32,000 nucleotides of DNA from an uncultured archaeon (GTDB taxonomy: Archaea; Iainarchaeota; Iainarchaeia; Iainarchaeales; CSSED10-239): positions 1 through 32,000 of the forward strand of contig CAZCAP010000004.1 in NCBI GenBank assembly GCA_964496765.1. Reading direction: 5' to 3'. The notes under the pieces are model-generated. The model ran no database searches and had not been told where the DNA came from. It worked only from the letters and a program-made list of their open reading frames with translations. Positions within the stretch are counted from its first letter, which is position 1; every line of letters begins with the position of its first letter. Positions 2,010 to 24,303 of this stretch are shown piece by piece. The position numbers and the translations under genes were made by a program.

Positions 2010-3944
2010 TCATTTATTTTTTTCTAAGAATTCTTTTAAGTTCTTGTTTAAGCTTTTAGATAAAATTTGCCCATCAATTAGTCCTTTTGTTTTTGACATG
2101 AGACGACCCATGAGTAAACCAATTGCTCTTTCTCTTTGTTTTAAGACAGTTTCTTTATTTTCATTAATTACTTCAATAGCTAGTGAATCAACATCAATAT
2201 CTTTTTTGCTTGCACCAACTCCAAATTTTTCAAGTATAAGTTTAATTGATTTTTTTGTATCCAGGTATTCTACAAACACATCATTAAATTTTGTTTTTGG
2301 AATTTCAGTAACCTCTTTTTGAGAAAAGAAAGAATAAAGAGTATCATCCTCTAGGTAATCAAGATTGATCTTCTTTTCTCTCTGAAGTTTTGTTAAATCT
2401 TCTAAAAGGAAAACACACAAGGTTGTTGGGTTGATGTTATTAGTTGTTACAATTTGCTCAAACACAGGAGCAAAGTTTGAAAGAAGCATCTTATCTGCAA
2501 GCTGTGAATTTATTTTATAATTATTTAAATACAACTCTTTTCTTTTATCAAGAGATAATGGAGTTTCTTTATTCATTCTATCCACAAGCTCTGGAAGGAA
2601 ATCAATTGGAGAAATATCTGTTTCTGGATACATTCTTGCAGAACCTGAAAGAGGTCTTTGGTATTCTGTGTTTCCCTGGGGAGTTGCTATTCTTGTTTCT
2701 TCAGGGACACCAACTAGTAATTGATTTAATCTGTTCTCAATAATCTCTTTAACATAATTAATTTCAGATGGAGCAGAAATTATCAGAATAAAAGAATCCT
2801 CTTCTTTTAATTGTAATTTTGTTTTAATAGTAGTTACATCTATTTCTGTGATTCCATAGTTTGGAAGCTCATCTAAATGAAATAATCCTTTTAGAGTAGT
2901 CTTCATTTTTAAAATATTTGCAATCTCTGTTCCTACTCTTCTTTCTGGTTGAACCTCATAGCCAAGGATTCCTTTGAAATTTGGAAGAGGGAAACAAAAT
3001 ATTTTCCTTCCTTGGGCAAGCGATTCTTTAATCATTTTTGATTCGCTTGATTTAAAGATATCTGTTACATCTACTTCACTTAAAACAACATTTTTAATTT
3101 CCCTTAATTTTAATTCATCTCTCACTTGTAATAAAGATAATTGTCTTACTATTTCTCGTTTAACAATCTCTGGTATTAGATCAAGATCCTGGGCACCCTT
3201 TATCTCTGTTCTTGTTCCTCCTTTGATTGAGATGTTTATGTCTTGTCTAATTGAACCAAGACCTCTCTTGGTTTTTCCTGTGGATCTAAATAACTGTCCA
3301 AGAAACATAGCAGTCTTTTTAACATCCTCTGGTGTATATATATCATGCCAGGCAACCACTTCAATCAATGGAGTCCCTAGTCTATCTAGAGAATAAACAA
3401 CTTCCTTTTCTCCTCTTTCAATTACTCTTGCTGCATCCTCTTCTAATAATATCTTGTTTATTCTAACTCTCCCGAAATCCATATCAATATAGCCATTGGT
3501 TGAGATCATCATTGTTCTTTGGAATCCAGAAACATTTGAACCATCAATTACCTGCTTTCTCATAACATAGGTTCTATCAACAATTGTTGAATTAGTTAAT
3601 TTTGAAATAATCATAGAAATTACAAGTGCATCCCTATTTGGTTGAAGAGGTGGTTGACAATCAAGTTCAACTAAACAATTACAGGAATCATATCCCAGAT
3701 AGGTAAATGTTTTATCTCTCTTTTGCTCATGGCTTGCAGTTGCATCAACCTCTCCAGCTTCAGAAGTAACTGCATGAAGCTTTCTTGAAACAGAAAAATC
3801 AGGTATAGTATCATCTCTAATTAAAAAAGATTTACAATTACAAAATAATTTATTTGTGTTAAGCTGTTGGTGAAGTTCAAGCCCACACATTAAACCAAGT
3901 GATTTGTAATCTAAATTATTTATATCTATTTTTGTTAAAACCAT
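2010..3944 (-). CDS. gatE: Glutamyl-tRNA(Gln) amidotransferase subunit E (archaeal GatE)
   Basis: 644 aa with an N-terminal GLMCGLELHQQL GatB/E signature. Length and position next to gatD fit. Confidence 0.9.
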   Translation of the reverse strand: MVLTKIDINNLDYKSLGLMCGLELHQQLNTNKLFCNCKSFLIRDDTIPDFSVSRKLHAVTSEAGEVDATASHEQKRDKTFTYLGYDSCNCLVELDCQPPLQPNRDALVISMIISKLTNSTIVDRTYVMRKQVIDGSNVSGFQRTMMISTNGYIDMDFGRVRINKILLEEDAARVIERGEKEVVYSLDRLGTPLIEVVAWHDIYTPEDVKKTAMFLGQLFRSTGKTKRGLGSIRQDINISIKGGTRTEIKGAQDLDLIPEIVKREIVRQLSLLQVRDELKLREIKNVVLSEVDVTDIFKSSESKMIKESLAQGRKIFCFPLPNFKGILGYEVQPERRVGTEIANILKMKTTLKGLFHLDELPNYGITEIDVTTIKTKLQLKEEDSFILIISAPSEINYVKEIIENRLNQLLVGVPEETRIATPQGNTEYQRPLSGSARMYPETDISPIDFLPELVDRMNKETPLSLDKRKELYLNNYKINSQLADKMLLSNFAPVFEQIVTTNNINPTTLCVFLLEDLTKLQREKKINLDYLEDDTLYSFFSQKEVTEIPKTKFNDVFVEYLDTKKSIKLILEKFGVGASKKDIDVDSLAIEVINENKETVLKQRERAIGLLMGRLMSKTKGLIDGQILSKSLNKNLKEFLEKNK

Positions 3945-3953
3945 AATAATTTC

Positions 3954-5321
3954 TCATTCCATTGAATTTTCAAAGTATTCTGGGTCTTCTTTTTCAGTTA
4001 TTTCTCCAGAAATGTTTTTTTTCATATAATTAATTATATCTTCTCTTTTTTTAAATCTAGAAAGAGCACAACCTAATTTAATGTAGCCAACCTCTGGAAG
4101 CATATCATGAGACTCTAAATATTCTGCTCCCGCATCATTTGCATATCTTAGATTAGCATAAACCTTTCCATTAACTCTCCCAAATAAGCATTGGGATGTA
4201 ATTATAACTATTATTCCCTTCTTTGTTGCCTCTACAATAAAAGGAAGCCATTGTTTTTCTTCAGGTAAATTTTGAGTTGTTCCACCAATTCCTGTTGGAA
4301 CATGACCAAGCCCAGTTCCTTCAAGCACTAATCCTCTATAGCCTTTTTCAATATACCAATTAATAACAAATGGATCTGAATTAGGATAAACTTTAATTAA
4401 TGCAACCTTGTCCTCAAAGGAATTTTTTAATAGTGGTTGCTGATTGTCCAACATTTGTTGCAATTTAGTTTTATCAATCATGAATTCAATATTCCCATTA
4501 AAATAAACTTTTGCTATTGGAGAATCATTGACTGCTCTAAAAGCATCTCTTCTTGATGTGTGCATTTTTCTTGATTTTGTTGCTCTAATAACATAGCAAA
4601 AATCATCATTAATCGAACCATGCATAACAGTAAAAACACCAGCTATCTTTTCTTTAACAAAATGAGCAGCACATATTAAATTCATTCGTCCATCAAAGCT
4701 AGCTCTATCAGGTGATCTCTGTGCTCCAACCAAAAGAACAGGTTTGTTTATGTTCTCAATCATAAAAGAGATTGCTGTTCCTGTATAGGAAAGAGTATCT
4801 GTTCCATGGGTAATAATCACTCCATCAATATCCTTATTTATTATTGAATTAAATACCTTTTCTGATAATTCTTTCCAATCCCCTGCAAAGAAGTCTTCGG
4901 ATGGTTTAATAAAAGGAGATTTTATTTCTTTAATGTTTACAATTGATGCAAGTTCAGGAACTGTTCCAATTATTTCTTCTGGCGTTCTACACATAAACAC
5001 AGCACCAGTATTATAATCAACGTGGGTTCCAATGGTTCCACCAGTTCCAATATATGCTATTGATGGAAGATCTTTATTTATTGTTGGATTTATCTTTGGA
5101 ATGGAACCAAGATTCACTTTTTCTTTAAACTTTTCAATTTTTGTTTTAGCGTCAATGGAAACATCTATGTTATATCCATTATCCACAAGCTTGATTTTTA
5201 AAGCATCAGGAGATATATCTACCACATAACCCCTATATTCCATTTTTTTCCCATTAATCTCTTTTGAGATCAAAACCAGATATCCAATATCATCTTTTGA
5301 TAAATCAGTCATAACTATCAA
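3954..5321 (-). CDS. gatD: Glutamyl-tRNA(Gln) amidotransferase subunit D (GatD, asparaginase-like)
   Basis: Asparaginase motifs IGTGGTIG and HGTDT; about 450 aa; directly upstream of gatE. The track start is TTG; the ATG at 5312 (MTDLSKDD) is an equally plausible start. Confidence 0.9.
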   Translation of the reverse strand: MIVMTDLSKDDIGYLVLISKEINGKKMEYRGYVVDISPDALKIKLVDNGYNIDVSIDAKTKIEKFKEKVNLGSIPKINPTINKDLPSIAYIGTGGTIGTHVDYNTGAVFMCRTPEEIIGTVPELASIVNIKEIKSPFIKPSEDFFAGDWKELSEKVFNSIINKDIDGVIITHGTDTLSYTGTAISFMIENINKPVLLVGAQRSPDRASFDGRMNLICAAHFVKEKIAGVFTVMHGSINDDFCYVIRATKSRKMHTSRRDAFRAVNDSPIAKVYFNGNIEFMIDKTKLQQMLDNQQPLLKNSFEDKVALIKVYPNSDPFVINWYIEKGYRGLVLEGTGLGHVPTGIGGTTQNLPEEKQWLPFIVEATKKGIIVIITSQCLFGRVNGKVYANLRYANDAGAEYLESHDMLPEVGYIKLGCALSRFKKREDIINYMKKNISGEITEKEDPEYFENSME

Positions 5322-6000: not shown

Positions 6001-7413
6001 ATGAAACCAAAATATAATTTAAAAGAAACAGATGTTGAAGCATATCTGGAAAAAGTAAAAGGATATCTTGAAAAAAAGAACATAGATTATTATGACATTC
6101 GTCTTGAAAAAAGTAAGAAAACAGGAATAGTTATAGATAATGATAAAGCAAGAATTATTGGAGATAATGAGATTATAGGAATTGGAATTAGAATCTATAA
6201 AAACAAAAAACTAGGGTTTTGTTCAACAACCAATCTTGAAAATTACAAACCAATAATTGATGAATGTATTAGGACTACAGATAAATTAACTAAAAAAACA
6301 GATTTAATGAATTTTGCATCAAATAAAGCAACTATAAAATATAAACACAAAAGCTTTGAAGATGTTTCTCTTGAACAGAAAGTTAATGAACTTATTAAAA
6401 TTAATAAGGAAGTCATTAATACTGAAAACAAAGACTATAAATTATTAGAATCAGAAATCAGGTATAAGGAAGAATACACAGAAAACTATTTTGTTAATCC
6501 ATGGAGTTATATTTACCAAGACGAACCCTATACAATGATTTATTCTCTAATGACTGGAAAAAGAAATGGAATTATTGAAACAAATCTTCATAGAGCTTGT
6601 GAAAAAAGTGGACTTGAATCAGTTACCTTTGAAAAAAAAAATAATTTACTTATAGAGAACAAAAGAATATTGGGAGAACTATTATTTTCAAAACCCTGTC
6701 CAGCAATAAAAACAGATATACTATTAGATCAGGAGATTGTTGGACTTTTTGCTCACGAAGCAATAGGGCATCCCTGTGAAGCAGATGCTAAATTAGTAAA
6801 TGCAACTGTGCTTAAGAAAAAAGGAATAGTACTCACAAAAAACAAAGAGGTTACAATTGTTGATGATCCAACTATTAATGGATTTGGGCATTTCGTGTAT
6901 GATGATGAGGGAATAAAAGCTAAAAAAACAACTCTAATAAAAAACGGGATTGTAAATGAATATATGACAAACATTGAGACAGCAACATCGGAAAAGGAAA
7001 AATCAAATGGGTCAGCAAGGGCAGAAAATTTTTCAGCACCCCCAATTGTAAGAATGAGTAATACTTTCTTCTTACCGGGAAAGGATAAACACAAAGATAT
7101 GTTAACTAATTTTAGTGGTTTTTATCTTAAAGGTTTTGCTGGAGGTATGGTTGATCCTTCAATTGGCACCTTTATGTTTGGAATAAAACAAGCAATTAAA
7201 TATGATAGGGGAAAGATTGTTGGAAAATTTAAACAAGCATCAATTTCAGGGAACATTTTAACCTATTTAGATAACATTACAAAAATTGGGGATAACCAAA
7301 ATGTTGGAGGATCTGGTTTTTGTGGGAAGAATAACCAGACAGCATATGTTGGAGATGGAGGCCCAATCTTAAAAATAGATAACGTAATGGTTGGTGGAAC
7401 AAAACATGAATAA
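6001..7413 (+). CDS. tldD: TldD-family metalloprotease
   Basis: HEAIGHPCEAD (HExxxH) metal-binding motif; 470 aa; followed by its PmbA partner. Confidence 0.85.
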   Translation: MKPKYNLKETDVEAYLEKVKGYLEKKNIDYYDIRLEKSKKTGIVIDNDKARIIGDNEIIGIGIRIYKNKKLGFCSTTNLENYKPIIDECIRTTDKLTKKTDLMNFASNKATIKYKHKSFEDVSLEQKVNELIKINKEVINTENKDYKLLESEIRYKEEYTENYFVNPWSYIYQDEPYTMIYSLMTGKRNGIIETNLHRACEKSGLESVTFEKKNNLLIENKRILGELLFSKPCPAIKTDILLDQEIVGLFAHEAIGHPCEADAKLVNATVLKKKGIVLTKNKEVTIVDDPTINGFGHFVYDDEGIKAKKTTLIKNGIVNEYMTNIETATSEKEKSNGSARAENFSAPPIVRMSNTFFLPGKDKHKDMLTNFSGFYLKGFAGGMVDPSIGTFMFGIKQAIKYDRGKIVGKFKQASISGNILTYLDNITKIGDNQNVGGSGFCGKNNQTAYVGDGGPILKIDNVMVGGTKHE

Positions 7414-8698
7414 AGAAGAAATTTATAATTTTTGTGAAAAAATTTCAAAAAAAGAAAATATTGAGTTTATATACTATTCAGGAAAGAAAACAAATATTGA
7501 TTTTGAGAAATTCGATGTTACTAAGAGTACAAACATTGAAAGTACTGCTCTTTATATAAGGGTTATTGTAAATGGGCAAATAGGATTTTACACCATTACA
7601 GAAATAAATGAAAAGAATATAAGAAATGGTATTAATAAAGCAAAGAAAATTGCAAAATTAAAGAATGATATTAAAATAAAAGATTTTGGAAATGCAAAAC
7701 CAAAATCACATATTCATTTTGATAAACAAATAAAAAATATAGATTTCACAGGTCTAATCCCAGATATTAAAAAACAGTTAACTAAAGACAAATACATTAC
7801 TTCCTACGAGGGAAACCTAAACAAGATGGATAACTATGAGTTTTATATTAATCCCTACACACGCAAAGAAGAAGAAAAATCAAGTATTAATCTGGGAGTA
7901 TCTGTAATTACTAAGGACAAAACACAATCTAGTGCATCCTATTCAAACACATTCACAAAAGCAGAGGATATAGATATTAAAAGAACATTTAATCAAGCAA
8001 AACATGATGCTAATCTATTACTAAATCCAAAATCAGGAAAAGAAGGGGAGTACACACTAATTTTCACTCCTGATGTATTCAATAATCTACTTTCTGGACT
8101 AATAATACCAGCAACAGTAGGAGAAAATATTGAAAAAAAAGAATCATATTTACATTCGTTTATTGGGAAAAAAGTATTTTCAAACAAACTAACAATAAAT
8201 GAAGAACCACACATAGATGATTTTACAAGTTCCTGTTCAATGGATGATGAAGGATTTAAAACGGAAAGAAAAACAATATTTGATGCAGGTATTTTCCAAA
8301 CTCCAATCTATGATCAATACAATGCAACAAAATACAATAAAAAAACAACAGGAAATGGATTTAGAGTTGGAAGCACAATTTCTTGTAATCACACTAATTT
8401 AATTCAACTTCCTGGACATCATAGTATTGATGATATAATATCTAAAACAAAAAAAGGAATACTTGTTTATTCTCTTCTTGGGATGCACACAAATAAGATT
8501 ACAACAGGTGATTTTTCATTAATTATTGGAGCAGGAAAAGAAATAATTAATGGACAATTTAAAAACACAATTACAAACCTAAGATTTACTGGAAATATTA
8601 TAGACACACTAAAAGATATTTATTTTTCTAGAGAGCAAAAATTTAATGGAAATGGATTATTTTCATTTGGGATCATTCCAAAAATCAGAGTGATATAA
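7406..8698 (+). CDS. pmbA: PmbA/TldE-family protease partner
   Basis: About 430 aa paralog of TldD lacking the HExxxH motif. The ATG at 7406 overlaps the tldD stop (ATGAATAA); the track TTG start at 7391 is less likely. Confidence 0.8.
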   Translation: MNKEEIYNFCEKISKKENIEFIYYSGKKTNIDFEKFDVTKSTNIESTALYIRVIVNGQIGFYTITEINEKNIRNGINKAKKIAKLKNDIKIKDFGNAKPKSHIHFDKQIKNIDFTGLIPDIKKQLTKDKYITSYEGNLNKMDNYEFYINPYTRKEEEKSSINLGVSVITKDKTQSSASYSNTFTKAEDIDIKRTFNQAKHDANLLLNPKSGKEGEYTLIFTPDVFNNLLSGLIIPATVGENIEKKESYLHSFIGKKVFSNKLTINEEPHIDDFTSSCSMDDEGFKTERKTIFDAGIFQTPIYDQYNATKYNKKTTGNGFRVGSTISCNHTNLIQLPGHHSIDDIISKTKKGILVYSLLGMHTNKITTGDFSLIIGAGKEIINGQFKNTITNLRFTGNIIDTLKDIYFSREQKFNGNGLFSFGIIPKIRVI

Positions 8699-14066: not shown

Positions 14067-14948
14067 TTAAATTAGGTGTAATTTGGACAGTCGTTTCTCA
14101 ATAGAAGGTAAAAGATATGCTTTTCTTGAAATCAACCAATTATGGGTTGTATTTTGAAAATGTTTTGAAAGCTCTCCAAAGTAATATATCCTGGTGATCT
14201 TTTGTTTTAGATCTATAAAAATTAATATTTCTAAGTCAAACTCATTTTTCAGGTATTTTCTTGCAACAGCTACGTCAAAAAATTCACCATAGGTTCTTAT
14301 GTTTACCATTAATATAGAAAAATCACCAACAGAAACTATCTTTCTATCCTCTAGCATTCTTTGTTTAATACTTTTTTTAGTATTTAATTCAAACACATCC
14401 AATAAAACTTTTTGTCCACTGGGCAATCCACTATATTTTTTTTTTAATTCAAAAATTGCTTTTTTATCAGCTATCCTTGTGGCATCACTTGAAAGATTAA
14501 ATGTATCTACAATAATAGCATAGTAAAATAATTGTGCTTCATTTCTAGTAATTAAAATCGTCTCTTTTTTATAGAGATAATAAATTATAGTTGCACAGGC
14601 ACCCCAATTATTACATTTTTTAAATACTTTTACTTTTTGTGATTTACATGTTCTATGATGATCAATTATTCCAAACAATTCATTTGAATATCCTTTTCTA
14701 CCTATTGATGATTCTGGAGAATTGTGGTCAACCAATACAAATTGATCTGTTTTATTTATTCTTTGATTTTTTGAAAACTCAAAACCAAGTTTATTTATTA
14801 TATTAATTAAATGTTTATTTTCTTTACCAAAATAGATTGCTTTTGATTCTAAATTAAACTTTTTTTTAATATATTTAGGAGTAAGAACAGACGAAGCAAT
14901 ACTATCTAAATCAGTTGTTGGATAGGTGTGACCAGTTATATATATCAT
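14067..14948 (-). CDS. ppaC: DHH-DHHA2 phosphoesterase, family II (Mn-dependent) inorganic pyrophosphatase-like
   Basis: Matches blocks I recall from Bacillus PpaC: ITGHTYPTTDLDSIASS (H-x3-D-x-D), LVDHN, IIDHHR, AIIVDT and a C-terminal ISRK. Confidence 0.75.
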   Translation of the reverse strand: MIYITGHTYPTTDLDSIASSVLTPKYIKKKFNLESKAIYFGKENKHLINIINKLGFEFSKNQRINKTDQFVLVDHNSPESSIGRKGYSNELFGIIDHHRTCKSQKVKVFKKCNNWGACATIIYYLYKKETILITRNEAQLFYYAIIVDTFNLSSDATRIADKKAIFELKKKYSGLPSGQKVLLDVFELNTKKSIKQRMLEDRKIVSVGDFSILMVNIRTYGEFFDVAVARKYLKNEFDLEILIFIDLKQKITRIYYFGELSKHFQNTTHNWLISRKAYLLPSIEKRLSKLHLI

Positions 14949-14959
14949 AATTTTCCTAT

Positions 14960-15073
14960 TTATTCATTAGTAATCAAATATATTAGATACATAATATATA
15001 GAATGTAAAGTATATAAAAACTATAGTTTGGATAACTAATTTGCTTGGACACGCACCCCCCTCCAATAGACAT
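14960..15073 (-). CDS. Candidate 37-aa micro-ORF (Gly3-Cys then a Tyr/Ile/Leu-rich hydrophobic tail)
   Basis: ATG at 15073 is preceded by ACTACAAGGGGGGG (G7), sharing a 12-nt leader with the Alba gene. The stop is 11 nt upstream of the ppaC-like ATG. It overlaps TATA-like sequence, so it may be fortuitous. Confidence 0.2.
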   Translation of the reverse strand: MSIGGGCVSKQISYPNYSFYILYILYIMYLIYLITNE

Positions 15074-15188
15074 ATACCCCCCCTTGTAGTACATATATAA
15101 TAGAAAATAGGAAAAGCGGAGGAGTATGAAGAAGAGGTGAAATTCCTCTTTTCTACTCTTTTGATTTAATTTTTTTAGAAACAATTAG

Positions 15189-15214
15189 GATGATCTGGTC
15201 TGCCCCAGATCATC
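15189..15214. promoter_or_regulatory. Perfect 10-bp inverted repeat (GATGATCTGG-N6-CCAGATCATC) in a divergent intergenic region
   Basis: Read directly. It is relatively GC-rich for this region and sits 55 nt upstream of the PolB-like ATG. Confidence 0.4.
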
Positions 15215-15268
15215 TCTCTCCCCTAGTAATTAAAAAACAGAATTGTGAAACAAAGAGGTAAATAGATT

Positions 15269-16735
15269 ATGAAAAAATTATATTTATTAAACTCTCTATA
15301 TGAGAATGAAAAAAACAGAATTGTGCTTTATTTCGCAGATAATATTCTTTCATCTAAATTTGATTTCACATATAAAGAAAAGTTTAATCCCTATTTTTAT
15401 GTTGATATCCCACTAGATCTTGGAAAAAAACTTCTTTATGAATTTAAAGGAGACATCAAAGTAGAATTAATTGAACCCAATATAATTAAAGTAAAAGCAA
15501 GAAATTATGAAATTTTACAAAAGAGCTCAAAAATCATCTCACTATCCACAGGTAAGAACATAATACTTCTAGAACCAGAAAGACAATATTTATTAAATAA
15601 TAACTGGAGTTATTATGACACATTCTGTATAACCCACGAAAATAAAATTAAAAAAATAAAAGATACAAATGATTTACACATTGCAATTAAAAATGTAATA
15701 GAAAATTTGGATAACACGGAAAAGATTAGGCTTAGCACAATACTTACAAAGAAACTAATAACCTGTAATCTATTATCCATAAAACCAAACACAGAACTCC
15801 CAAACGAACAAATATTAAATATGCTATTTGAAAATAATTTTTATAAAAAAGCACTAGTTATAAAAAACAAACCAATCATTTCAATCCCAAAAAGAAAAGA
15901 AATATTAAACAAAAGCTATTGCCTTGATTTTTCAGGAGTGATTCCACATCTTCTTCTAAAAGAAAATTACAATATTGGATTTGAAACTATTAACTGCACC
16001 TGTTGCAAGCCAAACCAAATATTTGAAGCAAATACATTATCAAATTCATTAGTTGAAGTAAGATTTGAAAAAAATGGATTTTATTTCATATCAACCAACA
16101 AACAATTTAGATACAAATACCACCAGGAGGATGAAAGAAAAGAAAATAGGCTTATTTATATGCACGAAAATAAGATTAGAGACCTTCCATCAGGTCCTTT
16201 TTTCTCTGGAGAAAAGCAATTAATTCCATTATCTGATGCAATCAGATTAACTGAAACTGGGGATGTTACCATAACCCATGAAAACAACAAACTTAGTTGG
16301 TATTGCCTAAAGAACGAGTCATTTATATCTGAAATAATTTCTAGATTAATAAAAAGATTAAAAATCATAGAAAAATCAATATCCATTAGTAATTATTTAA
16401 ATTATTCTAAAAAAATATCAAACGAACTTGATAATAATTTTTCATACACTCTATACATGACCGAATATGCTCTTCTATTAAATCTATTATCAGAAATACC
16501 AATATTTATGGCCCACACAAACACTAAGTTTTATACTCCTGAAGTCACAAGTGCAATTAAAACAATTAAAGAAGATCTGATAGTAAGAGCATCGCCATCA
16601 CCAGAGGATGTTCCAAGATTTACAGAGGTTACAGAAAAAGAAAATATATGTACAACTAACAAGAATTTTGTTTTAGATATAAATACATATTTCACAAAAA
16701 TAAATCTTCCAATTCCTAGATTAGTGGTTAGTTAA
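15269..16735 (+). CDS. Family-B DNA polymerase-derived protein lacking the exonuclease domain and catalytic motifs B/C (putatively inactive)
   Basis: ATG with AGGT SD. Blocks FNPYFYV, ILLEPERQYLLNNN, ILNMLFENNFYKKALVIKNKP and YCLDFSGVIPHLLL occur in the same order as Thermococcales PolB FxPYFYA, [37 protein letters not shown] and YLDFRSLYPSIII. Assignment is from memory of those motifs. Confidence 0.5.
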   Translation: MKKLYLLNSLYENEKNRIVLYFADNILSSKFDFTYKEKFNPYFYVDIPLDLGKKLLYEFKGDIKVELIEPNIIKVKARNYEILQKSSKIISLSTGKNIILLEPERQYLLNNNWSYYDTFCITHENKIKKIKDTNDLHIAIKNVIENLDNTEKIRLSTILTKKLITCNLLSIKPNTELPNEQILNMLFENNFYKKALVIKNKPIISIPKRKEILNKSYCLDFSGVIPHLLLKENYNIGFETINCTCCKPNQIFEANTLSNSLVEVRFEKNGFYFISTNKQFRYKYHQEDERKENRLIYMHENKIRDLPSGPFFSGEKQLIPLSDAIRLTETGDVTITHENNKLSWYCLKNESFISEIISRLIKRLKIIEKSISISNYLNYSKKISNELDNNFSYTLYMTEYALLLNLLSEIPIFMAHTNTKFYTPEVTSAIKTIKEDLIVRASPSPEDVPRFTEVTEKENICTTNKNFVLDINTYFTKINLPIPRLVVS

Positions 16736-16767: not shown

Positions 16768-17046
16768 TTATTTAAGTAAGGTTATTTCTATTGCTGACAC
16801 CTTCATGGGAGTATTATTTTCTGTGATTATCTCTTCAGTGGAAATATCTATACTCTTTATCTTTAGTGTGTTCACAAATTTATTTTTAACAATCTCTGCA
16901 ACATCAACAGCTTTTGATATTGTTTTTCCTCTTGCTTTGATAATTACTGAGTCAACACCCTGATTAAACTGTGTAATAACAGCTAAAACATAGGACATTG
17001 TATTCTTCTTTCCTATATAAATTATGTTATTTTCAGTCGTGTCCAT
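16768..17046 (-). CDS. albA: Alba DNA/RNA-binding chromatin protein
   Basis: 92 aa; [18 protein letters not shown]......[19 protein letters not shown] is a typical Alba pattern. Strong G5 SD. Confidence 0.9.
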
Positions 17047-18360: not shown

Positions 18361-21300
18361 TTAATCTCTGTTTGATCGTTTTACAGCATCTAATATGAAA
18401 TCATAATTACTTTGGAACTTATCATCAGCACCAACCTTGTTTTCAGTTGGATCTCCCATTCCCTGATTAACATCCTTATTAACAAATTTATCAGCATCAA
18501 AATTCGATAATTTATCAAAACTCCCTTTTCCTAGTGAATTATAAATTTCATCTTTTGCTGTTGGTTTAGCTAATCCCTTATCTTTTCTCTTATTTGCAGA
18601 AACAACAACCCAAACAATAATCAACAGAATAATTAATGCAAGTACAAAAACAGTAATATAGGTTAATAATTTCTTTTTAATATTTGATGAATCAACTGTG
18701 ATATTCTCAGATGCTACCTCTCCAGATAAAATAACTGGAGATTTAAAATAAACTAATTCAAATTTGGTTACAACATCAAACTCAGTAACTGGACTTTTCT
18801 TATTATACTTAATCACAGTTGATCCTTTTGCAGGAATTGTTATAGCATACATTATTTTTGGATCACTAACTAGAACTTCAACAGGGTCAATAAATATTAA
18901 ATCTTTTATGGTTGTTGCAAATTCCTTTGGTATTTCTTCAATAAAAGTAATTGTTATTGGACTAGATGATGAATTTTTAAATTCTAATGACACAGAATAA
19001 TATTTTTGTGAATTTATTTCAATAACTATAAAATTACGATCAACTGTTATTACTCCTTGACCATACAATACATTTGTGTCTACTATAAGATTTGTATCAG
19101 ATGTTAGTAGATATAAGTCATTAGATAATTCGGTGGTATATTTACTAGAAAAGCTTTTTACTTTAATAATTGATTGATTTGGAAGTTCACCTATTATTTC
19201 TAGTATAAGATTATTTGCTTGATTATAAAGCTCATTTGCTGAAATTTCATTAATTCCAACTAATGCTTGTGCAGCTGCAATTCTTTCATAAACTGTATTT
19301 AGCTTTGTATTCACATCAAAGTTAATTGGAATTAATAGACCCTCATAAATCTCCAATTTTGAATCAAGTTCATCTAAATTTAATTTAATTGATGCTAGCA
19401 GTTCTTCTCTCTCCACCATAACTTCATTAACATTATTGAATTCGATAACAACTTCCTTGATACCCACATTTAATGCTTTATCATAGGCAAGAACCGAAAT
19501 TGTATGATTTCCGTCTTCATAGGCAAAACTATTAAAATCACAGGTGAAGTCAACTGAATTACTATCCTTCAAACAAAGTTCATCAATATCATCCATTAGA
19601 TATTGTACTTTAAACACATCATCTGATAAATCAACAGGTGTAAATGTATATACACCATTAACATCTGAATAGTTAACATCCAATGTGGGTATATTTGCGT
19701 CTGCAACAAAATCAAAGGTATCTGTTGCACTCTCATTGCTTGAATTTCGTCCAGTTATCTCAATAATACCAGTTCCACTGGTTGTAATATTATAATCTCC
19801 AGATATTTCGTTAGCTGTTGTTGCTGCTAAAATAGTTACATAACTACCTGTCCCAATTTTTATTTTAATTATTCCTGTTCCAGATAATTCTTCATCACCT
19901 ATTGCACTTATGTGAACTAAACCCTCTTTCACATAAGTTATATTATCATCCACATTCACTGGAGATACAGAAATTGTAAAACTTGGACCAAATCTTTCTG
20001 CAGTTCCAATAACTTCGGTACTTAATGCAGATTCATTGTTTGCATAGTCAACAGCAGATAATTTAAAATAATAATTCTTATCCTCGTTTGGAGAAAAGGT
20101 GTACTGTTCATAATCTGTTGTAACTTTAGTTGAAGAAATAGTAACTCCACTTCTATCAGAATAATATATATTATAATAATCAACACCACTATTGTTATCA
20201 GTTGATTGTGCCCAGGTTAATTTAATTGAACCATTAGTAAGGCTAGTTGCTTTTATGGTGGATGGAATTGATGGAGCCGTTGAATCATATTTAATTGTAT
20301 TTGATTTTCTTGTAATTGTATATGGAGAATCCTCTGATCGTGCTTCAATGTAGATTCTTTTGGTCTCGTTTGTTGTTGTACATCCATTTCCAGAAGTAAT
20401 GTTAAATTGAGTGTATTCAAAATCAGTATTATCAGAGATTTCTATCCAAGAAGTAAAGGTTGATGCATTACAACTAAATCTAAGTGCATTCACATCAGAT
20501 GAAGTGGATATCGTGAATTTTGGTGTAGAATCATTTGTATAGGTATTATCATCATCAATATCAAAAGACAAGCTTGGACCAGTGCTAATTGAATTTGCAT
20601 CTACTGCACTCTGATTCCCAGCCTTATCAACAGCAACAACACCATAATAATATCTTGTATCCATTGATTTATCAGTAGAATCCACACAACTTTTTGTTTC
20701 AGCTGCAAGAACAGTACAAATTAATGTTTCATCTTCATAACTTGTAAAATTAGAGGTTGATCTATAAACATTATATTCTAATAATCCACTTCCAGAATCT
20801 GTTGAAGTCCCCCAACTAGAAATTGTAATATTATCATCAACAGCTCTTGTTAGGCTTGGCTTAGTTGGAGTTGTAGGCCCAGTTGCATCGATCTGAACAT
20901 TAAAATCAAGAGATAAATTATTATCAACATTATCATTAACATCGAGTGCTACTTGGTAAATATTACCATCACCCCAGGTTCCTGTTTGTGAATGATAAAA
21001 TCCAAGATTTGTAAGATTATAATCCTTAGTTACTGTTGTTGAATCAGGAAGAGTTATCACCATTTTTGTTGCAACTGGAGAGCTGTCAATTCCAGAACCA
21101 GATTCAGAAATAACTACATTAATCAAAAATGTATTTGAATCAACATAATAAACAGTATTATTTGCTAATGTTCCTAAATTAAAGCTTGTAACAGTTGGTT
21201 TTGTATTATCAATATAAAGCACTTTATTAGTATCAATTACTGCTTGACTAGCACCCGCATTTCCTGCAGCATCCATAGCATCAAGAACAACATAATAATT

Positions 21301-21957
21301 ACCATCAACTAGTCCAGTTCCAATAGCAAGGTTAACTGGAGAAACATTAGAATCTTTTTGTACTTTTTTAGTGTATGCAGAACTATAACTTGAAATATTA
21401 CTTGAAGTTACAATGTATGCAAGATACTTGTTTATATAACTATCAGCATCCGTATACCCTGATGCATTTAAATTCACATCTCCTCTATAAAAGGTATTAT
21501 TGGTTGTTCCAAGAGAAGTTATTGTAAACGTTCCAATAGTTGGCTTTACATTTTCAACCTGTAGGGTATCAGATTTACCTTGCCCATTATTATCAGTAAC
21601 TGTAATGGTATCAACTTCTGCAGAAACCATGATTGGTCTTTTTGGGTATGTGGAATGATAGGTGGGAGTTAGGGCGTTAACATCAATATAAAAATTACCA
21701 GTAAAACTAGTCCCAGAAACATCCGCATTAAAATCAAAATTGCTTGCTTCCGATGAACTTATTCTTAATGGAATCAAAGAATTAGTAATTCCATTGGTGT
21801 CTGTTAAAACCCCTGTTATCGTATATGCTGTGTCGACACTTGCTGCGTTTGTTATTGACTCAACTATATTAAAAGTACTAATTGTATAAGCATGTATGTT
21901 CATTCCAAAAAATAAGGCCAATACAACTACAAAAACAAGATAATTCCTACAATTCAT
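18361..21957 (-). CDS. Large cell-surface protein (putative S-layer/adhesin) with repeated beta-sandwich domains and a C-terminal TM anchor
   Basis: N-terminal signal-like segment YLVFVVVLALFFGMNIHA. Thr/Ser/Asn-rich modules with FN3-like hallmarks (YNVYRS, YYNIYYSD) and linkers such as KPTV and APSIPS. A helical segment (EREELLASIKLNLDELDSKLEIY), the TM LLTYITVFVLALIILLIIVWVVV, then an ~80-aa tail. Confidence 0.8.
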   Translation of the reverse strand: MNCRNYLVFVVVLALFFGMNIHAYTISTFNIVESITNAASVDTAYTITGVLTDTNGITNSLIPLRISSSEASNFDFNADVSGTSFTGNFYIDVNALTPTYHSTYPKRPIMVSAEVDTITVTDNNGQGKSDTLQVENVKPTIGTFTITSLGTTNNTFYRGDVNLNASGYTDADSYINKYLAYIVTSSNISSYSSAYTKKVQKDSNVSPVNLAIGTGLVDGNYYVVLDAMDAAGNAGASQAVIDTNKVLYIDNTKPTVTSFNLGTLANNTVYYVDSNTFLINVVISESGSGIDSSPVATKMVITLPDSTTVTKDYNLTNLGFYHSQTGTWGDGNIYQVALDVNDNVDNNLSLDFNVQIDATGPTTPTKPSLTRAVDDNITISSWGTSTDSGSGLLEYNVYRSTSNFTSYEDETLICTVLAAETKSCVDSTDKSMDTRYYYGVVAVDKAGNQSAVDANSISTGPSLSFDIDDDNTYTNDSTPKFTISTSSDVNALRFSCNASTFTSWIEISDNTDFEYTQFNITSGNGCTTTNETKRIYIEARSEDSPYTITRKSNTIKYDSTAPSIPSTIKATSLTNGSIKLTWAQSTDNNSGVDYYNIYYSDRSGVTISSTKVTTDYEQYTFSPNEDKNYYFKLSAVDYANNESALSTEVIGTAERFGPSFTISVSPVNVDDNITYVKEGLVHISAIGDEELSGTGIIKIKIGTGSYVTILAATTANEISGDYNITTSGTGIIEITGRNSSNESATDTFDFVADANIPTLDVNYSDVNGVYTFTPVDLSDDVFKVQYLMDDIDELCLKDSNSVDFTCDFNSFAYEDGNHTISVLAYDKALNVGIKEVVIEFNNVNEVMVEREELLASIKLNLDELDSKLEIYEGLLIPINFDVNTKLNTVYERIAAAQALVGINEISANELYNQANNLILEIIGELPNQSIIKVKSFSSKYTTELSNDLYLLTSDTNLIVDTNVLYGQGVITVDRNFIVIEINSQKYYSVSLEFKNSSSSPITITFIEEIPKEFATTIKDLIFIDPVEVLVSDPKIMYAITIPAKGSTVIKYNKKSPVTEFDVVTKFELVYFKSPVILSGEVASENITVDSSNIKKKLLTYITVFVLALIILLIIVWVVVSANKRKDKGLAKPTAKDEIYNSLGKGSFDKLSNFDADKFVNKDVNQGMGDPTENKVGADDKFQSNYDFILDAVKRSNRD

Positions 21958-23135: not shown

Positions 23136-23750
23136 TCAACAAAGTTTACTTTTTGGTTTATTTAATAATTGTTCATCAAGTATATGAGAAAAAGCACCAA
23201 CCGATAAAAGTTTTTGATTACCATCAAGTGTTCTTACAATAAACTTGTGTATTGACTTTTCCTTTGGGCCAATAATAATTATATATGGAATTTTTTTTAA
23301 TTCAGCATTTCTTATTTTTTTTTTAATATCCCCTGATTGATTTTCAATTTCAATTCTTGCCCCTGTTTTTGAAAGACCAGTTTCTATTTCATTACAAAAA
23401 TTAAGCATATCATTTCCATTTGGGATTAGTTTAACATGAACTGGCAATAACCAAAAAGGAATTGAATTCATTTCCTTTTGCAATATTGCTTCTGGAATTT
23501 CATAAATATATGTTTTATCTTTATAACTAATAGAAAAATCATTCTTAATTTCAATTAACGAAGTGTTTTGAGACCCAGAAGTACTCTTATTGATGGGAAC
23601 ATCTGTGGTTTCTGAATTTTGCATAGTAGAATTAGAAACACAACTTGTATTCTTATTTGCATTTTTGAAATTATTACTTTGATAATGATTATTAAATTTG
23701 TTTTTCTTAAAAAAACTAAATCTCTGTTTTAAATTATTTGTTCGTTCCAT
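23136..23750 (-). CDS. Stand-alone threonyl-tRNA synthetase-type anticodon-binding domain protein with a low-complexity N-terminus
   Basis: The C-terminal ~115 aa run IPFWLLPVHVKLIP...GARIEIENQSGDIKKKIRNAELKKIPYIIIIGPKEKSIHKFIVRTLDG. This parallels the ThrRS FPxWLAPVQVxxxP...GxRxxxDxRxEKIxxKIRxAxxxxxPYxxxxGxKExxxxxVxVRxRxG. Start set at ATG 23750; the longer track ORF overlaps the CPBP gene. Confidence 0.7.
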   Translation of the reverse strand: MERTNNLKQRFSFFKKNKFNNHYQSNNFKNANKNTSCVSNSTMQNSETTDVPINKSTSGSQNTSLIEIKNDFSISYKDKTYIYEIPEAILQKEMNSIPFWLLPVHVKLIPNGNDMLNFCNEIETGLSKTGARIEIENQSGDIKKKIRNAELKKIPYIIIIGPKEKSIHKFIVRTLDGNQKLLSVGAFSHILDEQLLNKPKSKLC

Positions 23751-23766
23751 ATAAATATCATCCAAA

Positions 23767-24303
23767 TTAAATAAACATAAATGCAAGCGCAATAAAATTA
23801 TATATTAGATGTGCAGAGAAGGTAACCCATATATTTCCTGTCTTTTGATAAAATCTTGCTAGTACAACACCCAAAACAAAGGCACCAATTATTTCTGTCA
23901 CTGAGCCATAGAGTATATGCCCACAAGCAAATAGAGCTGAAGAAATAATTACGCCCACTCTCTTAACTAAAAAACCTCTAAAAAACCATTCCTCTAAAAA
24001 CACTCTAATAACAAACAAATATATTATATAGATTGCAGACAGGGAAGTTATTTTTTCTCCAACAACAGAAAGATCCTGCACTCCAAATAAGCTTGAAACA
24101 TAACTTATTGCAAAACTTATAATAAACATCAGAAAGAAAAGAATAACTACATTTCTAATAAATATTTTCCAATCAATTCTTTTCAAACCTTGAAGTTTAA
24201 TTAATTCTTTTAATGTTACTACTTTACCATAAAAATACAAAAAGTATAATGGGAAGAATAAAAGAATGAAATCCAAAAAAAAATCATTTATTATAAAACC
24301 CAT
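23767..24303 (-). CDS. CPBP family intramembrane glutamic endopeptidase (CAAX protease-like)
   Basis: Motifs EEWFFRGF (EExxxR), FACGHILYG (FxxxH) and SAHLIYNF (HxxxN) within a polytopic membrane protein. Confidence 0.85.
   Translation of the reverse strand: MGFIINDFFLDFILLFFPLYFLYFYGKVVTLKELIKLQGLKRIDWKIFIRNVVILFFLMFIISFAISYVSSLFGVQDLSVVGEKITSLSAIYIIYLFVIRVFLEEWFFRGFLVKRVGVIISSALFACGHILYGSVTEIIGAFVLGVVLARFYQKTGNIWVTFSAHLIYNFIALAFMFI

Follow-up and report, generated by a model that had tools for sequence, protein, structure and literature searches.

In a 32,000-nucleotide stretch of DNA from an uncultured archaeon of the Iainarchaeota (contig CAZCAP010000004.1, positions 1 to 32,000; hereafter the window), a gene at 15269 to 16735 on the forward strand encodes a protein of 488 amino acids, which appears to be a strongly reduced and catalytically dead derivative of the family-B DNA polymerases (PolBs). 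The protein, here called mini-PolB, is predicted to keep the N-terminal domain, half of the palm and the fingers of a PolB, to have lost the exonuclease domain, the thumb and the functional residues of motifs B and C, and to carry within its palm a module that resembles the B-domain of GINS subunits and is flanked by four invariant cysteines. Most likely it serves as a non-catalytic adaptor where DNA ends are processed or replication is restarted. A preliminary description of the window, made from the sequence alone, had proposed an inactivated PolB without an exonuclease domain; the missing thumb and KxY motif, the insertion of about 95 residues with its four cysteines, and the genomic link with herA, nurA and rad50 go beyond that description.

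A reduced family-B polymerase fold

The derivation of mini-PolB from the PolBs is supported by structure prediction and by profile alignments. An AlphaFold2 model built from an alignment of 28 sequences reached a predicted local distance difference test score (pLDDT) of 85 and a predicted template modelling score (pTM) of 0.85. Compared with the PDB by Foldseek, this model gave 128 matches at E<=1e-3 (best E 2e-7, probability 1.00), and all 50 of the 128 that were listed are PolBs, with query-normalised TM scores of 0.4-0.5. They include human and yeast Pol epsilon, E. coli Pol II, S. solfataricus PolB1, and the Tgo, KOD, 9°N and Pfu enzymes, to which mini-PolB is only 7-10% identical in sequence. 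A search of viral structures (BFVD) yielded 24 matches at E<=1e-3, every named one of which is a DNA polymerase. Because the listed PDB matches are PolBs and the named BFVD matches are DNA polymerases, PolB ancestry is supported, as the preliminary description had supposed. One family member (P0027) also matches the PHROG 'DNA polymerase' profile across motif A (E 4e-4).

Sequence profiles of known families were far less informative. Whether the query was mini-PolB itself or a family profile, searches of Pfam, NCBIfam and PDB sequences returned no usable match, and a match to WCOB (E 0.013) was dismissed as noise. The Pfam families DNA_pol_B (PF00136) and DNA_pol_B_exo1 (PF03104), which the preliminary description had named as the profiles to compare, matched neither the window protein nor any of 71 family members (0/71), even at E<=10.

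The motifs were mapped by hhalign profile alignment, using a family alignment of 71 sequences with members down to 21% identical. Reference sequences were checked against PDB chains (KOD PolB, 1WNS_A; yeast Pol2 476-1220, 4M8O_A; Pol2 1320-2222, 6HV8_A; human PSF2, 2E9X_B), and the E. coli Pol II reference was taken from the K-12 genome. The elements mapped in and around the gene are listed below, with the evidence for each in brackets.

15255-15259, forward strand: Shine-Dalgarno-like GAGGT (direct sequence read)
15269-16735, forward strand: mini-PolB, complete open reading frame of 488 aa plus stop (open reading frame call, family, model, dN/dS)
15269-15604, forward strand: putative N-terminal domain, residues 1-112, with F39-x-P41 and the PERQ[FY]L helix 103-110 (secondary-structure order, hhalign)
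15605-15670, forward strand: residues 113-134, W-S-Y-[FY]-D-x-F and a predicted beta-hairpin (strands 118-123 and 126-130), in the place of the exonuclease domain (model, conservation)
15671-15847, forward strand: residues 135-193, putative helical second half of the N-terminal domain, with LFENNFY (E188-N189) opposite KOD LLRKAYERN (hhalign with KOD 331-368)
15923-15955, forward strand: motif A equivalent LDFSGVIPHLL, residues 219-229, opposite KOD LDFRSLYPSII (hhalign, column counts, PHROG)
15995-16006, forward strand: C243-x-C245-C246 (invariant in 71 sequences)
16016-16297, forward strand: GINS B-domain-like insertion, residues 250-343 (model, Foldseek, Pfam, hhalign)
16298-16513, forward strand: predicted fingers, residues 344-415, with antiparallel helices 352-378 and 391-415 (model, hhalign)
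16304-16306, forward strand: C346, the fourth invariant cysteine (invariant; aligned with KOD C442 and Pol2 C763)
16469-16504, forward strand: degenerate motif B equivalent, residues 401-412 (hhalign with Pol II)
16514-16732, forward strand: putative C-terminal palm, residues 416-488, with helix 424-441, the motif C hairpin, helix 465-477 and a last strand (hhalign)
16613-16654, forward strand: degenerate motif C hairpin, residues 449-462 (hhalign with Pol II and KOD)
16768-17046, reverse strand: Alba gene, convergent (Pfam Alba, E 1e-21)

The strongest alignment to KOD pairs residues 163-269 with KOD 331-444 (E 0.0009-0.0018), covering the helix of the N-terminal domain and motif A exactly as they had been matched by eye in the preliminary description; its score of 36.2 compares with a maximum of 21.9 in 60 composition-matched shuffles. 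A second, colinear alignment joins residues 343-461 to KOD 439-545 (E 0.34). Against Pol II, residues 397-462 align with 486-551, from motif B through motif C (E 0.003-0.007; score 29.6 against a maximum of 20.8, again in 60 composition-matched shuffles), and residues ~397-466 align with the motif B-to-C segment of the N-terminal and C-terminal halves of Pol2 (E 0.03-0.09). Near the N-terminus, residues 24-55 correspond to KOD 23-51 (E 0.09, or 0.093 unrounded) and place FNPYFYV (39-45) opposite FEPYFYA, so that the first block singled out earlier, KFNPYFYV, can be kept as a strand of the N-terminal domain; within it, P41 is invariant. The second block fared less evenly. Its position in the N-terminal domain is upheld by the order of secondary structure and by its conservation, PERQYLLNNNW being the best-conserved stretch of the N-terminal half, but no alignment on its own paired its sequence with the KOD helix that had been proposed. 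Y11, F39, P103, R105, Q106, F107 and L108 are at least 90% conserved in the 71 sequences. An attempt to improve the PolB profile did not help: the KOD search returned only Thermococcales sequences of at least 74% identity, and the resulting profile mapped no better. Taken together, Foldseek and the colinear alignments indicate that the canonical order of N-terminal domain, palm and fingers is present in mini-PolB.

What the core has lost

In the place of the exonuclease domain, mini-PolB has about 50 residues (113-164), compared with about 195 in KOD (131-326), and these form the conserved WSY[FY]DxF strand, a hairpin and a helix. No ExoI-III motif is conserved in the family alignment and PF03104 finds no match, in agreement with the absence of this domain reported at the outset. 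At its other end, the protein stops 26-27 residues past the motif C hairpin, where Pol II has 232 more residues and KOD 229; as judged from this alignment, the KxY motif and the whole thumb are missing.

The loss of motifs B and C was likewise borne out. The motif B equivalent falls at residues 401-412, where hhalign sets L404, S408 and P411 opposite K493, N497 and Y500 of Pol II. I412 is also among the aligned positions, and the family consensus in this segment reads L..Ll..iP..L. The equivalent of motif C is the hairpin of residues ~449-462, aligned with YGDTDS of Pol II and YSDTDG of KOD. This hairpin has a low pLDDT, is unconserved, and lacks the Asp pair, or any conserved acidic residue, in both subfamilies (consensus in the divergent subfamily, G.R.[VI]H-S....AF). 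The candidate for motif C that had been offered earlier, LTETGD (residues 327-332), was rejected, as it lies in a helix of the GINS-like insertion. Motif A remains recognisable as LDFS..[WI]P.LL, and its aspartate, D220, is Asp in 56 of the 71 sequences (79%), Asn in 11, Ser in 2, and Glu and Arg in 1 each. Because motif B and both Asp of motif C have been lost and the Asp of motif A is not strictly kept, mini-PolB is, on the evidence of its motifs, unable to polymerise DNA by the PolB mechanism.

The inserted module and the four cysteines

Between motif A and the fingers, residues 250-343 (~95 aa) have no counterpart in KOD. The insertion is placed in the palm loop that lies between the equivalents of KOD C428 and C442, two cysteines joined by a disulfide in KOD. 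Three cysteines, C243, C245 and C246, stand before it, 23-26 residues past the motif A Asp, and one, C346, stands after it; all four are invariant in the 71 sequences. C246 is aligned with KOD C428, and C346 with KOD C442 (E 0.014) and Pol2 C763 (E 0.17), while a weak alternative alignment puts C243 and C246 on Pol2 C665 and C668. Within the insertion, R294, G309 and P310 are invariant, H285, P307, F311, D323 and L327 are at least 90% conserved, and K291 is Lys in 59 of the 71 sequences. The core motif reads P307-x-G309-P310-F311...I319-P320-L321-x-D323-A324-x-x-L327.

Several comparisons point to the B-domain of GINS. Modelled on its own, the excised insertion had a pLDDT of 86, and GINS subunits made up about 20 of its best 35 Foldseek matches, none of them significant (best E 0.42; GINS matches, E 0.4-2). 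They comprise PSF1/2/3/SLD5 in CMG structures, T. kodakarensis GINS (3ANW), 5GHR/5GHS and S. solfataricus GINS (9MOJ), the match to 5GHR_B having a probability of 0.90 and a target-normalised TM score of 0.69. The 5GHR/5GHS chains, titled only 'DNA replication protein' in the PDB, are the Gins51 B-domain with GAN. When 61 excised insertions were compared with Pfam, the only recurring families were PSF2_N (PF25005; 7/61, best E 3.7e-4) and Gins51_C (PF22090; 3/61, best E 3.7e-3), both weak and likely below curated cut-offs. The hhalign comparison paired residues 307-336 (PvGPF.......IPL.DA..L) with human PSF2 32-61 at E 3.3e-4, scoring 27.2, and none of 300 shuffles exceeded 20.6. Taken singly these three signals are weak, yet they point the same way. 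With moderate confidence, then, the insertion can be described from sequence and model as a GINS-B-domain-like module, and its conserved GPF and PL.DA..L, with similar confidence, as the structural signature of that domain and probably not a catalytic site. The likeness comprises the core G-P-F-x(5-7)-[IV]-P-L-x-x-A-x-x-L and a small beta-hairpin-plus-helix fold (PDB 2E9X, 5GHR). Unlike GINS, however, the mini-PolB module is an internal insertion of a PolB palm, has two extra helices ahead of it and a Cys cluster closing it, and is accompanied by no GINS A-domain.

The gene, its family and its distribution

The open reading frame begins with ATG, and GAGGT lies 9 nt 5' of it by direct reading; the Shine-Dalgarno sequence is partly retained (AAGGA) in the ortholog at locus L002. 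Twenty-eight close homologs have equal length and 26-100% identity, and the reading frame is unbroken in all homologs. An exhaustive profile search with a hidden Markov model (HMM) over 1.84 billion representatives, with a cut-off of E<=1e-3, gave a family of 170 representatives at 50% identity; among the 150 of these matches that were listed, the longest relative has at most 546 aa. Measured against the L002 ortholog, to which the window protein is 80% identical, the ratio of nonsynonymous to synonymous substitution rates (dN/dS) comes to 0.10. The gene, described from the start as intact and equipped with its own Shine-Dalgarno sequence, is thus real and under strong purifying selection.

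When one genome per species was scanned with a family profile, a mini-PolB gene turned up at 32 loci, almost all in metagenome-assembled genomes titled 'Candidatus Iainarchaeum', 'ainarchaeum' or 'archaeon'. The family is restricted almost wholly to the Iainarchaeota (Diapherotrites) of the DPANN archaea, and its members have been annotated to date only as 'hypothetical protein'. Two loci are filed elsewhere, L015 (JAFCBY010000044.1) as 'Candidatus Falkowbacteria bacterium' and L030 (JAGVNS010000122.1) as 'Thaumarchaeota archaeon'; both have herA upstream of the mini-PolB gene, L030 also has nurA and rad50, and both are probably mis-binned Iainarchaeota contigs. A viral or defence origin was considered and ruled out, since PADLOC gave no match and the mini-PolB loci contain no integrase, viral genes or viral context.

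Genomic neighbourhood

To describe the surroundings of the gene, open reading frames were called and clustered in 33 loci, and the clusters were annotated by Pfam and NCBIfam. The divergent half of the family, whose members share 25-30% identity with the window protein, shows the gene order nurA, a HAD hydrolase gene, herA, mini-PolB, rpoK and rps17e, followed by a convergent gene for a Rad50-like ATPase with a CxxC hook and by EF-1beta. Independent gene calls with Pfam annotation bear out this order and give a gap of 57 nt between herA and mini-PolB. In 13 loci, a same-strand herA ends 83-690 nt 5' of the mini-PolB gene. Within 10 kb of that gene, herA occurs in 23 of the 33 loci, nurA in 20 and rad50 in 14; rad50 is convergent in all 14 and lies 460-650 nt downstream in 12 of them. 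The closer subfamily is arranged differently, with convergent genes for Alba and a SufS-like cysteine desulfurase after mini-PolB, an intein-bearing herA about 3 kb downstream, nurA about 6 kb upstream, and a homolog of the ligase-associated DNA-damage exonuclease two genes upstream. Alba falls within the listed neighbourhood of five genes on either side in 14 loci, immediately downstream in most, and the SufS-like gene is near in 9; the latter is at most a hint of an Fe-S cluster at the Cys motif. In the lineage of the window (the window, L002, L004, L022 and others), the mini-PolB gene lies between a divergent gene for a Mn-pyrophosphatase-like DHH protein and Alba, and this lineage has lost the linkage with herA, nurA and rad50.

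In thermophilic archaea, the canonical cluster joins herA, mre11, rad50 and nurA (PMC2288612). No Mre11-like open reading frame was found within 10 kb in the 33 loci, a soft negative, as the search used a motif regular expression and an approximate probe sequence. The Rad50-like gene (~680 aa, CxxC hook) stands without an adjoining mre11 in L016-L033, L034 and L035, with EF-1beta as its upstream neighbour. No canonical PolB was found in 535 kb of Iainarchaeal DNA, which is not informative on whole genomes.

Two further observations concern these neighbours. The herA of the close subfamily (L011:14499-17003 and L038:14508-17012) carries in its ATPase domain an intein with a LAGLIDADG homing endonuclease, which gives a HerA of 834 aa compared with ~510 aa for the intein-free protein. 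In the P0020 lineage (L038:4126-4832, L039:4221-4845), a ParE-toxin/RHH-antitoxin pair adjoins nurA.

Likeness to known polymerases

Mini-PolB and KOD PolB (1WNS; PF03104 and PF00136) share a predicted fold of N-terminal domain, palm and fingers, together with the F-x-P-Y-F-Y strand, the helix ahead of motif A, the context of motif A (LDF.....LL..N....T.N...C), the cysteine equivalent to C442 that opens the fingers, and the helix and hairpin from motif B to motif C. Unlike KOD, which has 774 aa, mini-PolB with its 488 aa appears to have no exonuclease domain, thumb or KxY, its motifs B and C are destroyed, and the insertion of ~95 aa has been added.

The N-terminal half of Pol epsilon, which is among the best Foldseek matches, has an extra domain in the same palm loop, just ahead of the fingers. 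C665, C668, C677 and C763 of Pol epsilon form the CysX [4Fe-4S] site (PMC6582351), and published accounts treat the P-domain and CysX as exclusive to orthologues of Pol epsilon (PMC6582351; PMC7544198). Because its four cysteines flank the insertion in the same loop, mini-PolB has the same 3+1 Cys 'staple': three cysteines come before the insertion, the first of them 25 residues past the motif A Asp in Pol2, and one comes after it, directly before the fingers helix (C-x-K-x-E-S-F in mini-PolB, C-Q-R-E-N-P-F in Pol2). The spacing differs, being CxCC in mini-PolB and Cx2Cx8C in Pol2, and, unlike mini-PolB, which appears to be dead, Pol epsilon both polymerises and proofreads DNA and exceeds 1100 aa. 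The parallel between the two insertions is one of position. That the insertion is itself a P-domain was considered and rejected, since Foldseek with the excised domain gave no Pol epsilon among the best 50 of 100 matches; the P-domain is kept here as a positional analogy.

Inactivated PolBs have been described before, namely the C-terminal half of Pol epsilon (DUF1744), archaeal B2 and poxvirus F12 (PMC2669801, PMC4104785, PMC4304020, PMC7544198). Mini-PolB would share with them a PolB scaffold that has outlived its catalytic carboxylates, presumably being kept as a structural part, and with the C-terminal half of Pol2 (Pol2C) also an alignable motif B-to-C segment. All three are far larger and retain the thumb. 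The C-terminal half of Pol epsilon and archaeal B2 also retain a degenerate exonuclease domain (PMC7544198). Neither a GINS-like insertion nor a palm site of four cysteines has been reported for these proteins, and the architecture of mini-PolB, without exonuclease domain or thumb and with an insertion, is new among them. No closer relation to Pol2C is apparent: DUF1744 (PF08490) matched 2 of the 71 members at E 0.018, below threshold, and the hhalign matches to Pol2C (E 0.03-0.04) are limited to the generic motif B-to-C segment. The literature searched contains no account of the mini-PolB family, of a DPANN PolB without exonuclease domain and thumb, or of a GINS-like domain within a polymerase, and the main text of a 2020 survey of PolBs mentions neither the family nor Iainarchaeota or Diapherotrites (PMC7544198).

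Proposed role and alternatives

That mini-PolB is an adaptor rather than an enzyme is probable because the parts for proofreading and for gripping DNA have been lost, a docking module has been gained, and repair genes adjoin in many relatives. In the form proposed here, the four cysteines would hold a metal in a structural role, as Zn2+ or as an Fe-S cluster, and thereby staple the insertion onto the dead core; the core would recognise single-stranded DNA or a junction through its N-terminal domain, palm and fingers; and the GINS-B-like module would dock a partner protein, much as the C-terminal B-domain of Gins51 is the docking site for GAN and the N-terminus of PolD DP1 (PMC9023282). Mini-PolB might in this way bring the docked partner to DNA ends or stalled forks without catalysis, and the gene order suggests the HerA-NurA end-resection machine and the Rad50-like ATPase as candidate partners. 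For this non-catalytic adaptor, a dead PolB core with a docking module, belief and doubt seem to us evenly balanced.

Several points weigh against it. All structural statements come from predicted models, and DNA binding by a core without a thumb is uncertain. The likeness to the GINS B-domain is weak (Foldseek best E 0.42; hhalign probability 38% over 30 residues), and the A4 HMM search against the PDB found no GINS chain. Neither at the window locus nor at about ten related ones is herA, nurA or rad50 within reach. In the syntenic block, moreover, it is not only repair genes that keep company with mini-PolB, as rpoK and rps17e also follow it; the linkage may therefore be inherited housekeeping synteny within one phylum and not functional coupling.

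The best of the alternatives is a replisome scaffold, in which a dead PolB comparable to the C-terminal half of Pol epsilon would dock CMG components (a GAN/RecJ-type protein, MCM) or PolD DP1 and have no special role in break repair. Such a protein would make sense of an archaeal GINS B-domain (Gins51C) that binds GAN and DP1N (PMC9023282) and of the precedent of the C-terminal half of Pol epsilon, an inactivated PolB that is essential and binds CMG (PMC7544198); it would also suit a single-copy, core-like and constrained gene set amid information-processing genes (Alba, rpoK, S17e, L44e, TFIB), and DUF1744 does give faint matches in two members. Those matches are at noise level (E 0.018, 2/71), however, and the hhalign alignment with Pol2C is no better than with active PolBs. 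No replisome gene (MCM, GINS, GAN, PolD, PCNA or primase) adjoins mini-PolB in the 33 loci, and the DHH neighbour in the window is Mn-pyrophosphatase-like, not GAN-like. We regard the scaffold as unlikely, although it keeps a real share of our belief.

It could also be supposed that mini-PolB holds the operon slot, and with it the role, of Mre11 as a partner of Rad50 and HerA. The Iainarchaeota order nurA-herA-mini-PolB with a convergent rad50, compared with the canonical archaeal cluster in which rad50-mre11 is tied to herA and nurA (PMC2288612), together with the absence of a Mre11-like open reading frame, invites this idea. Yet that absence comes from an approximate probe sequence and a motif regular expression, and mre11 may sit elsewhere in Iainarchaeota genomes; mini-PolB has no phosphoesterase motifs, nuclease fold or PolB exonuclease domain; and rad50, being convergent, is not co-transcribed with it. 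A substitute for Mre11 seems very unlikely.

Still less can be said for a remaining enzymatic activity, in which the reduced palm, perhaps with H285, K291, R294, D323 and the motif A Asp, would carry out nucleotidyl transfer or another reaction. Primer-independent PolBs do function without the first Asp of motif C, and B2 may use a substitute Asp (PMC7544198); several polar residues of the insertion are invariant or almost so, and the window protein carries E456 and E458 at motif C positions. These two acidic residues, however, are unconserved even in close homologs, D220 is replaced by Asn, Ser or Arg in 14 of the 71 sequences, the Lys, Asn and Tyr of motif B are replaced, the thumb and KxY motif are missing, and D323 and G309-P310-F311 look like the structural hallmark of GINS B-domains and not like parts of an active site. 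We consider such an activity highly improbable.

Finally, that the PolB likeness is spurious (an AlphaFold/Foldseek artefact or chance motifs), or that the gene is a degenerating remnant of some mobile element, is scarcely credible: although the Pfam, NCBIfam and PDB sequence searches were empty, identity to PolBs is only 7-10% and single hhalign probabilities are low (1-38%), the matches listed in two independent structure libraries are polymerases only, four sequence blocks are colinear with PolB segments in four templates and score above all shuffles, the PHROG polymerase match covers the motif A region, the reading frame is intact in all homologs at a dN/dS of 0.10, and the gene's chromosomal surroundings are stable and free of integrase genes, viral genes and PADLOC matches.

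Other features of the window

The window is an AT-rich segment of an archaeal chromosome (~29% G+C, GC), with genes for Alba, geranylgeranyl reductase, a DHH protein, aIF2-gamma, aIF5B, S6e, S24e, L7Ae and GatD/GatE, and one tRNA-Gln. Divergent from the mini-PolB gene, at 14067-14948 on the reverse strand, lies the DHH-family protein (293 aa), whose best match is a Mn-dependent inorganic pyrophosphatase (87 bits against a curated cut-off of 283) and in which no DHHA2 was found. It was considered as a GAN/RecJ partner and rejected, being closest to that pyrophosphatase and adjoining the mini-PolB gene in the window and L002 alone.

The intergenic region between these two genes (14950-15268) is 86% identical to L002:7440-7781, a conservation at least as high as that of the flanking coding DNA, and is patchily G+C-rich in a genome of 28% GC. 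It contains a perfect 10-bp hairpin, GATGATCTGG-tctgcc-CCAGATCATC, at 15191-15216 and a second hairpin at ~15117-15160; each strand has a fold z-score of about -2, and only sub-threshold noise came from Rfam. The region may encode a small RNA or serve as a regulatory leader, and the 74-aa open reading frame that covers it (14960-15184, reverse strand) is probably spurious.

The tRNA-Gln(UUG) gene, at 179-253 on the forward strand, is ~1.8 kb from the reverse-strand genes for GatE (2010-3944; 644 aa) and GatD (3954-5321; 455 aa), which form the archaeal Glu-tRNA(Gln) amidotransferase acting on tRNA-Gln. Tandem paralogs of the TldD/PmbA metallopeptidase family follow on the forward strand at 6001-7413 and 7391-8698, with a 23-nt overlap. 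The reverse strand at 18361-21957 encodes a Thr/Ser/Asn-rich protein of 1198 aa that has a signal-like segment at its N-terminus, a transmembrane helix at its C-terminus, and fn3 and Big_13 domains; it is probably an S-layer or adhesin-like surface protein. A 218-aa open reading frame at 23136-23792, also on the reverse strand, has only HGTP_anticodon (residues 120-204) and no catalytic aminoacyl-tRNA synthetase domain, and may be a stand-alone or split fragment of such a synthetase.

Implications

The family shows how far a PolB can be reduced under strong selection, the N-terminal domain, half of the palm and the fingers being what appears to remain. The palm loop that hosts the P-domain and Fe-S site of Pol epsilon would, in a DPANN archaeon, carry a different, GINS-docking-like module. 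This bears on a wider question, as inactivated PolB modules are central to ideas on the origin of the eukaryotic replisome, in which the essential, non-catalytic C-terminal half of Pol epsilon binds CMG. The most far-reaching reading, that a thumbless and exonuclease-less dead PolB, with a GINS-type docking domain stapled on by a metal or an Fe-S cluster, is the missing partner of Rad50 and HerA-NurA in the operon slot of Mre11, is decidedly doubtful. If true, it would parallel, independently or by ancestry, the eukaryotic use of an inactivated PolB and GINS contacts to link polymerases to helicase machines. As it stands, mini-PolB is a testable candidate for an archaeal component of break repair or fork restart, encoded near HerA-NurA and Rad50 where the locus shows no mre11.

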